Below, one piece after another: positions 4,845 to 5,573 of a DNA stretch of 5,573 nucleotides. The first letter of the stretch is position 1; each line of letters opens with the position of its first letter. A program made the translations under genes and the position numbers. Source of the stretch: Escherichia coli (lineage in GTDB: Bacteria; Pseudomonadota; Gammaproteobacteria; Enterobacterales; Enterobacteriaceae); the NCBI RefSeq assembly GCF_003334765.1, contig NZ_QOWT01000064.1; one strand, written 5' to 3'. The notes under the pieces are model-generated. The model was not told the origin of the DNA. It did no database searches and saw nothing but the letters and a program-made list of their open reading frames with translations.

Positions 4845-5573
4845 TCATGCCAGTGGACTCATTACCCTCCGCCTAAGTAGTTCAAGTCCGGCTCGACCAT
4901 ACATCTGGCGTATCAGCACCTTCAGGCGATTTACATGACCTTCGACAACACCAGTACTCCAGCGACTGCTGATTGCCTCACATATAGCCGCAGCATCAGC
5001 TTCCATCCCCGCAGCTACGCACCGAAGTTCTGCTGAGCCGCTTTCGTGGACCCGAGTGAACCAACTGCTTAGCTGTGATTTATTTTAGGTTTTCAGAATA
5101 CGGTAGAACTCGAGTACCAGTTGCTGCGCTATTTTCAACTCCGGTTCTTTTTCACACATCAGACTAATAAATCGGAAAGCATAATTTTCTTCACCCCTGA
5201 TTATTCTCCAGGGCATCAACCAGCGGCTTACCCGGGACACTGAAGGAAGTCTTGCGGCAGTAGTAACCGGTGGGATCCAGCCTTTATGCCATTTGGCAAC
5301 AGCATCCCTGACGATGGTTTCACTGCCTGTAACCCCCCTGGCCACCATTTCCCGCCATATCCGGCCGGAGTTATAATTACCACATTCTCGTTGCTCTTTT
5401 AACCACTCCCTCCATGGGTCCAGAAGCCCTCGCTTTGGAGGCCTAGTTGACATTTCAGGGAATGTTCCTGAACCCACCCAGCGACTGACTGTCACTCGCG
5501 ACAGGCCTGTAATACGGGATATTTCCCTGAAACTACATCCCTTGTTATGCAGGGCCATAACCTCTGTCCAACG
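4845..5573 (-). mobile_element. Degenerate transposase remnant (N-terminus beyond window edge; in-frame TAA at 5085-5087; no DDE core recognisable)
   Basis: One minus-strand frame is open from the window edge to TGA at 4845-4847 apart from a single TAA (5085-5087). N-terminal part (…EVMALHNKGCSFREISRITGLSRVTVSRWV…LLDPWREWLKEQ…IWREMVARGVTGSETIVRDAV) parallels the HTH and following helical region of IS21-family IstA (recalled IS100 IstA: [27 protein letters not shown]…LLDEYRDYIRQR…[21 protein letters not shown]). C-terminal tail (STGVVEGHVNRLKVLIRQMYGRAGLELLRRRVM) resembles the conserved tail of ISL3-type and other DDE transposases. No D-D-E catalytic block is evident between them, so the family assignment is uncertain. 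Confidence 0.5.

Follow-up and report, generated by a model that had tools for sequence, protein, structure and literature searches.

What gene would begin like the transposase of an IS21 element, end like a DDE transposase, and hold no catalytic block in between? This question is raised by positions 4845 to 5573 of a 5,573-nucleotide stretch of an Escherichia coli contig (the window), for which a first-pass annotation proposed an internally deleted insertion sequence (IS), a domesticated helix-turn-helix (HTH) protein, or a family that it could not place. Our analysis points, with little room for doubt, to a different answer: positions 4795 to 5573 are the right-hand 779 bp of an ISEc38-like element of the ISL3 family, a full-length fossil that lies on the minus strand and is cut by the window edge.

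The open frame is the distal part of a 540-codon transposase pseudogene

The single frame of about 243 codons with one TAA that had been described, strand unstated, is present on the minus strand. Read from 5573 to 4845, it comprises 243 codons with a lone internal TAA at 5087-5085 and a terminal TGA at 4847-4845, and translation showed the other two frames of the same minus-strand stretch to be riddled with stops. The frame is still open at base 5573, where there is no start codon, and it extends 297 codons further upstream in every matching genome examined. What had been called an N-terminus is thus the point at which the frame runs off the window, and the window holds codons 298 to 540, including the stop codon (4845-5573), of a 540-codon pseudogene whose 5' 297 codons lie past its end.

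Even taken alone, the fragment was recognized by the NCBIfam ISL3 profile (E 7.6e-29, profile positions 218-368 of 370, with the 100.9 bits to be expected of a partial sequence), by the C-terminal half of the Pfam domain DDE_Tnp_ISL3 (E 3.4e-9, fragment residues 117-236), and by the first 100 positions of the NCBIfam IS21 profile (E 2.2e-13). This similarity to transposases far exceeds chance, and the feature is real.

Many E. coli chromosomes match the 774 bp from 4800 to 5573 at 100% identity. Matches occur in 3049 of 5426 complete genomes, with at least 80% of the segment covered in 2811 genomes, and every one among the matches listed is annotated as "ISL3 family transposase." In strain 13C1065T (locus L001), PGAP records a pseudogene of 1620 nt with an "internal stop" at L001 positions 5110-6729; window position 5573 corresponds to L001 position 6001 and to codon 298 of that pseudogene. 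The genome nearest to the window as a whole, FY26 (99.6%), has this 540-codon frame too, interrupted by stops at codons 113 and 460. As the collection searched contains no 100% match to the entire window, the portion of the element past 5573 is reconstructed from these very close relatives, and we infer that the source genome carries the same upstream half.

With its stops masked, the full-length L001 frame scored 344.1 bits against the NCBIfam ISL3 profile (positions 1-368 of 370; cut-off, 180 bits), which gives a clear family assignment to a sequence that had been considered possibly unplaceable. Intact copies on plasmids and chromosomes, annotated as "ISL3-like element ISEc38 family transposase," encode an uninterrupted protein of 539 amino acids (aa). 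The 1620-nt coding sequence of the window type is equal in length to these genes and aligns with them without gaps at 94.7 to 95.1% nucleotide identity; 45 of 539 residues differ (91.7% aa identity) from the PGAP-named ISEc38 copies. The name ISEc38 as used here follows the PGAP naming of copies that are 95% identical. By the ISfinder convention, copies of the same IS share above 95% nucleotide and 98% aa identity. At 95% nucleotide identity, the present copy lies on the border between an isoform of ISEc38 and a sister IS, and its PGAP label reads only "ISL3 family." The ISEc38-like ISL3 pseudogene is already on record, being annotated in roughly half of the complete E. coli genomes; ISEc38 is merely listed in many papers on the E. 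coli mobilome and is routinely reported by mobile-element finders.

The putative catalytic residues flank an inserted module and are split by the window edge

Pfam models matched to the full-length translation placed Zn_ribbon_ISL3 at residues 40-84 and DDE_Tnp_ISL3 in two parts, model positions 1-97 at residues 160-249 and positions 117-239 of 240 at residues 414-533. Only the last of these segments falls inside the window (4866-5225, minus strand). The approximately 164 residues between the two parts (250-413) occupy a spot where the model has about 20.

ISEc38 was aligned with 29 diverse relatives of 507 to 586 aa, each 32 to 42% identical to it. D163, D213, and D234 were invariant in this 30-member alignment, and S503, G505, E508, G509, and K515 were at least 90% conserved. 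An AlphaFold2 model built on the alignment (mean pLDDT, 89) predicted RNase-H strands and helices at residues 159-251 followed by a long helix, two small helical bundles at 312-332 and 349-393, an all-alpha block at 409-499, and a helix at 505-521 that bears E508. Judged from this predicted fold, D163, D213, and E508 are the likely catalytic residues. All three are present in the copy, as is the lysine seven residues after the glutamate, where ISL3 transposases have K or R. The codon of the putative catalytic E508 lies at 4943-4941 and that of K515 at 4922-4920, both on the minus strand and past the premature stop, within the motif S-[N>T]-G-V-V-E-G-H-V-N-R-L-K.

The aspartates D163 and D213 precede the HTH module and are cut off by the window edge; E508 is found in the C-terminal tail. 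It is because of this combination of window cut and domain order that the middle of the frame had appeared "DDE-less": the observation that no D-D block exists within the window stands, but the absence is an artifact. The resemblance of the tail to the conserved end of DDE transposases was well founded, as the tail matches DDE_Tnp_ISL3 and contains E508. The first-pass annotation had itself allowed for a known, full-length transposase with an unrecognized catalytic domain, and this is essentially what we find, the D-D block being beyond the window edge.

The element at this locus is a close relative of ISEc38, of approximately 1.72 to 1.76 kb, whose intact form encodes one DDE transposase of 539 aa. 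This protein starts with a zinc ribbon, followed by a small helical region, the RNase-H-fold core with D163 and D213, an IstA-like HTH/winged-HTH insert, an all-alpha insertion domain, and the E508 helix.

Terminal repeats and flanks define one orthologous, rearranged locus

A terminal inverted repeat (IR) had been suggested as something to seek near 4800-4845, and one was found at 4795-4837. A repeat search in L001 returned 43-nt inverted arms, 77% complementary, at 5014-5056 and 6737-6779; the second of these equals window positions 4837-4795 and is the right terminal inverted repeat (IRR), as also seen in an alignment of the ends of nine copies, and its left partner (IRL) is outside the window. 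The cores of the arms are GGTTCTTCC and GGCTCTTCC, the latter an ISL3-type terminus at 4817-4825, next to an outer 21-bp tip, TGTCACGAACAGTGCAAAAGT, at 4796-4816. An IR core of the GGCTCTTC... type is the typical ISL3 terminus. The element measures 1722 bp from core to core and 1764 bp with the outer tips. Upstream of 5573, about 990 bp more of the element would be expected, ending with TGTCAACGACGGATGAAAAGTGGTTCTTCC (IRL).

The 21 bp outside each core (TGTCA...AAAAGT) are inverted-repeated and conserved in Edwardsiella, Salmonella, and Klebsiella copies. Across the loci L001 to L009, the outer tip occurred as variants A (TGTCAACGACGGATGAAAAGT), B (TGTCACGAACAGTGCAAAAGT), and C (TCCACCAACGGCCCAATATT), and the left and right tips were paired differently from copy to copy: (A,B), (B,A), (A,A), and (C,B). 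In L004 and L008, an additional A-type tip was located 13 to 25 bp outside the C-type tip. It is possible that these mosaics reflect inversion of the IS body through recombination between the IR cores of about 30 bp or, alternatively, a preferred target that is palindromic or IR-like, in which case the outer 21 bp might belong to the target and not to the IS.

With the ends defined either way, the window copy and most of the others proved to have no 8-bp target duplication; in Salmonella, a related copy (L007) shows the 7-bp repeat CAGTCCG. As the duplication is missing, the window copy is not a simple, unrearranged insertion. About 30 bp from its right end lies the C-terminal remnant of a gamma-glutamyltransferase (ggt) paralogue (4473-4765, minus strand), which is frameshifted and has lost its N-terminus, and in L001 an unrelated gene for a zinc-ribbon protein flanks the element on the left. 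Because the missing N-terminal part of ggt is not found across the IS, a deletion or rearrangement took place with or after insertion. The missing duplication fits this rearranged flank and is no argument against ISL3 membership.

The ggt neighbor is common to every copy from 100% down to 97.4% identity among the matches listed, and the locus is therefore orthologous across these genomes. In roughly half of the complete E. coli genomes, the copy occupies this one fixed position, with the zinc-ribbon gene on one side and what is left of the gamma-glutamyltransferase gene on the other.

An old insertion has decayed independently in different lineages

The premature TAA of the window (5087-5085, minus strand) is codon 460 of the transposase gene. 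It is found in all five chromosomal copies examined (L001, L010, L011, L012, and L013); intact ISEc38 has CAA (Gln) at this codon, and an Edwardsiella relative has AAA. Because the CAA-to-TAA change precedes E508, the putative catalytic glutamate is lost from any product. In the closest genomes, translation ends even earlier, at a TAA in codon 113 (L001 and L013); L010 has a TAA at codon 88, and L011 has both a TGA at codon 66 and a 4-bp insertion at codon 376. In the window copy, the conserved N504 of the S-N-G-x-x-E-G motif is changed to T, and the right IR has accumulated substitutions. Selective constraint is relaxed as well, with dN/dS of 0.5 to 0.7 in the two more diverged pairs of chromosomal copies versus 0.11 when intact ISEc38 is compared with its Edwardsiella relative (81% identical).

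The L011 frameshift (E. coli EH031) is an expansion of a G run, from GGGGGG to about 11 G (alignment columns 1126-1130). The run is a slippage-prone homopolymer within the second HTH subdomain, and L010 has a substitution variant of it.

Taken together, this is the pattern of an old insertion that was inactivated once, was inherited vertically, and then decayed independently in each lineage. The TAA at codon 460 would be ancestral, and the other lesions would be specific to clades. The view that the frame is a transposase-derived pseudogene is borne out by the ISL3 profile match and the stops; with stops at codons 113 and 460 in place of an intact, autonomous gene, the element is a pseudogene remnant of an ISL3 member and not an active member.

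How do the other readings of this frame fare? An internally deleted IS, in which the D-D-E block was lost and the HTH fused to the C-terminal tail, would explain why the window shows no D-D block separating the HTH from the tail. Yet D163 and D213 do exist past the window edge, all 30 diverse intact relatives have their D, D, HTH module, and E in this order, and the complete 1620-nt coding sequence in matching genomes aligns with the equally long, intact ISEc38 gene. It is because this alignment has no gaps that an internal deletion is practically ruled out. A similarly minute chance is left for a functional transposase produced by programmed readthrough or recoding of the TAA at codon 460. 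Conservation of this stop across lineages is in favor of such a mechanism, but distinct additional nonsense and frameshift lesions lie upstream of it, lineage by lineage; active ISEc38 copies have CAA at this codon, and both the mutated N504 and the relaxed constraint speak against readthrough.

Slightly less remote, yet still very improbable, is a domesticated HTH protein, in the form of an IstA-like DNA-binding regulator or transposition inhibitor. Its candidate is a 157-aa open reading frame (ORF) at 5558-5085 that runs from an ATG at M303 to the TAA and spans the HTH module plus about 60 further residues. The stop that ends this ORF, at codon 460, recurs in the five chromosomal copies, which come from different strains, and L001, L010, and L012 have the ORF unbroken. 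On the other hand, M303 is a mere internal methionine of the intact transposase, and the ORF carries changes at conserved positions, such as F378V/G and R331G. In L011 it is disrupted by the 4-bp insertion at codon 376, a point against domestication, and dN/dS is relaxed across copies. At the orthologous locus, then, we see lineage-specific lesions in the gene and no sign of an intact ORF kept under purifying selection. A decayed, full-length ISEc38-like transposase gene accounts for these data.

As such, the remnant is of little importance in itself, and the apparent anomaly came from the window boundary; an ORF that touches a window edge has no defined N-terminus, which is a caution for annotation of this kind. 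At the same time, being fixed at an orthologous locus of the island and decaying independently, the pseudogene is useful as a marker that can date lineages.

The surrounding island contains further IS debris

Other genes of the window are worth recording. A gene on the plus strand at 388-1602 encodes a fusion of a DeoR-type HTH and a PfkB-type kinase (ribokinase RikA in some genomes); it has an internal stop at about 1502-1504 and is a pseudogene in the annotation of related genomes. It heads a four-gene block that continues with a glutamine amidotransferase (1616-2374), a DMT transporter (2431-3396), and a phosphotriesterase-related protein (3399-4433). Positions 1-197 of the plus strand hold an IS66-family transposase remnant, annotated at about window positions 1-192 in L001, that by eye appears to encode the C-terminal end of TnpC (...LYGLIGTCLLNDIDPEEYLRHILSVLPE before the stop). 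In the closest genome, a copy of ISEc45 (IS110 family) is situated just beyond this remnant. The island as a whole is a mosaic of IS debris. No RNA family reached the gathering threshold when the entire window was scanned with Rfam.

An IstA-like module is standard in long ISL3 transposases

The IS21 IstA-like HTH and the helical segment next to it, noted from the letters alone, are real. ISEc38 residues 302-398 (window 5271-5561, minus strand; L002 positions 2499-2789) align with residues 10-107 of IS5376 IstA (PDB 8q4d and 8b4h) at E 1.6e-10 over 97 residues, and these IstA entries were the sole PDB sequence matches under E = 1. The NCBIfam IS21 profile was matched at positions 2-100 of 294 (48 to 50 bits), with E 2.2e-13 for the fragment and 8.7e-13 for the full-length protein. 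Foldseek comparison with IstA gave a probability of 1.00 at 24 to 26% identity over about 100 columns, and AlphaFold2 places helices at 312-319, 323-332, 349-360, 366-375, and 382-393, consistent with a bipartite HTH/winged-HTH module.

A search with the module of 1.84 billion representative proteins gave 3118 matches at E<=1e-3 and 484 at E<=1e-10; many of the top matches were proteins of 530 to 590 aa with the module at about residues 285-435. On plasmids, tblastn recovered full-length relatives of about 30% identity in Alphaproteobacteria, Actinomycetes, Cyanobacteria, and Bacteroidota. The same plasmid searches yielded only full-length relatives of the long type, down to about 28% identity, and no short ISL3 transposase without the module. 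The Pfam and NCBIfam ISL3 consensus models lack the approximately 140 residues of the module, an absence from the family consensus that follows from the model coordinates. The IstA-like module is thus a standard feature of a large, multi-phylum subgroup of "long" ISL3 transposases (about 530 to 590 aa).

In IS21, where this function is regarded as established, the IstA domain reportedly binds the terminal repeats, according to the work on 8b4h. By analogy, the module may have a DNA-binding or DNA-end-binding role in ISL3 elements. We tentatively suggest, as an idea that is as yet rather doubtful, that the long ISL3 subgroup acquired the bipartite DNA-binding domain of IstA inside the catalytic domain, between the second aspartate and the glutamate, and that the domain may serve as an additional unit of end recognition, perhaps for the outer 21-bp tips. 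If true, this would be a transfer of a domain between two IS families, of which the window holds merely a dead example. Literature searches found no published account of an ISL3 insertion domain, of its relationship to IstA, or of ISL3 structures. The occurrence of an IstA-like module in ISL3 transposases is accordingly the only point here that is even mildly new, as we found no published description of it. It is of modest interest for transposon specialists, suggesting how these elements could recognize their long ends and pointing to domain exchange between IS families.

Comparison with known transposition systems

In whole-model Foldseek searches, the best matches to the predicted ISEc38 transposase were those of ISCth4 (IS256 family) and the hAT element Hermes, with E values from 1e-5 to 5e-4. 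The likeness lies in the RNase-H core and in an all-alpha insertion domain ahead of the catalytic glutamate. Identity is 9 to 11% and TM-scores are low (0.2 to 0.3), however, and the Zn-ribbon N-terminus and the IstA-like module have no counterpart in those proteins.

With the N-terminal DNA-binding domain of IS21 IstA, the transposase shares an aligned HTH and second helical subdomain. Unlike in IstA, the module is internal, between the second D and the E of the ISL3 core; profile positions 101-294 are unmatched in the ISEc38-like transposase, so that the IS21 profile does not extend above its cut-off across HTH and catalytic core. Nor is there an istB AAA+ helper gene beside the transposase: the element has a single coding sequence, and its stop leads directly to the IRR and the ggt remnant. 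Because the module is internal, the score is 48 to 50 bits versus a cut-off of 160, only positions 2-100 of 294 are matched, and istB is absent, the element is not a member of IS21.

The closest known system is ISEc38. The window copy differs from it in the premature stop at codon 460 (and at codon 113 in the nearest genomes), in 45 aa changes including N504T, in its right-IR substitutions, and in having no target duplication. It agrees with ISEc38 in its gap-free 1620-nt coding sequence, in its domain order, and in the IR core GG(T/C)TCTTCC...CAACCTGGGTGGA that is common to both.
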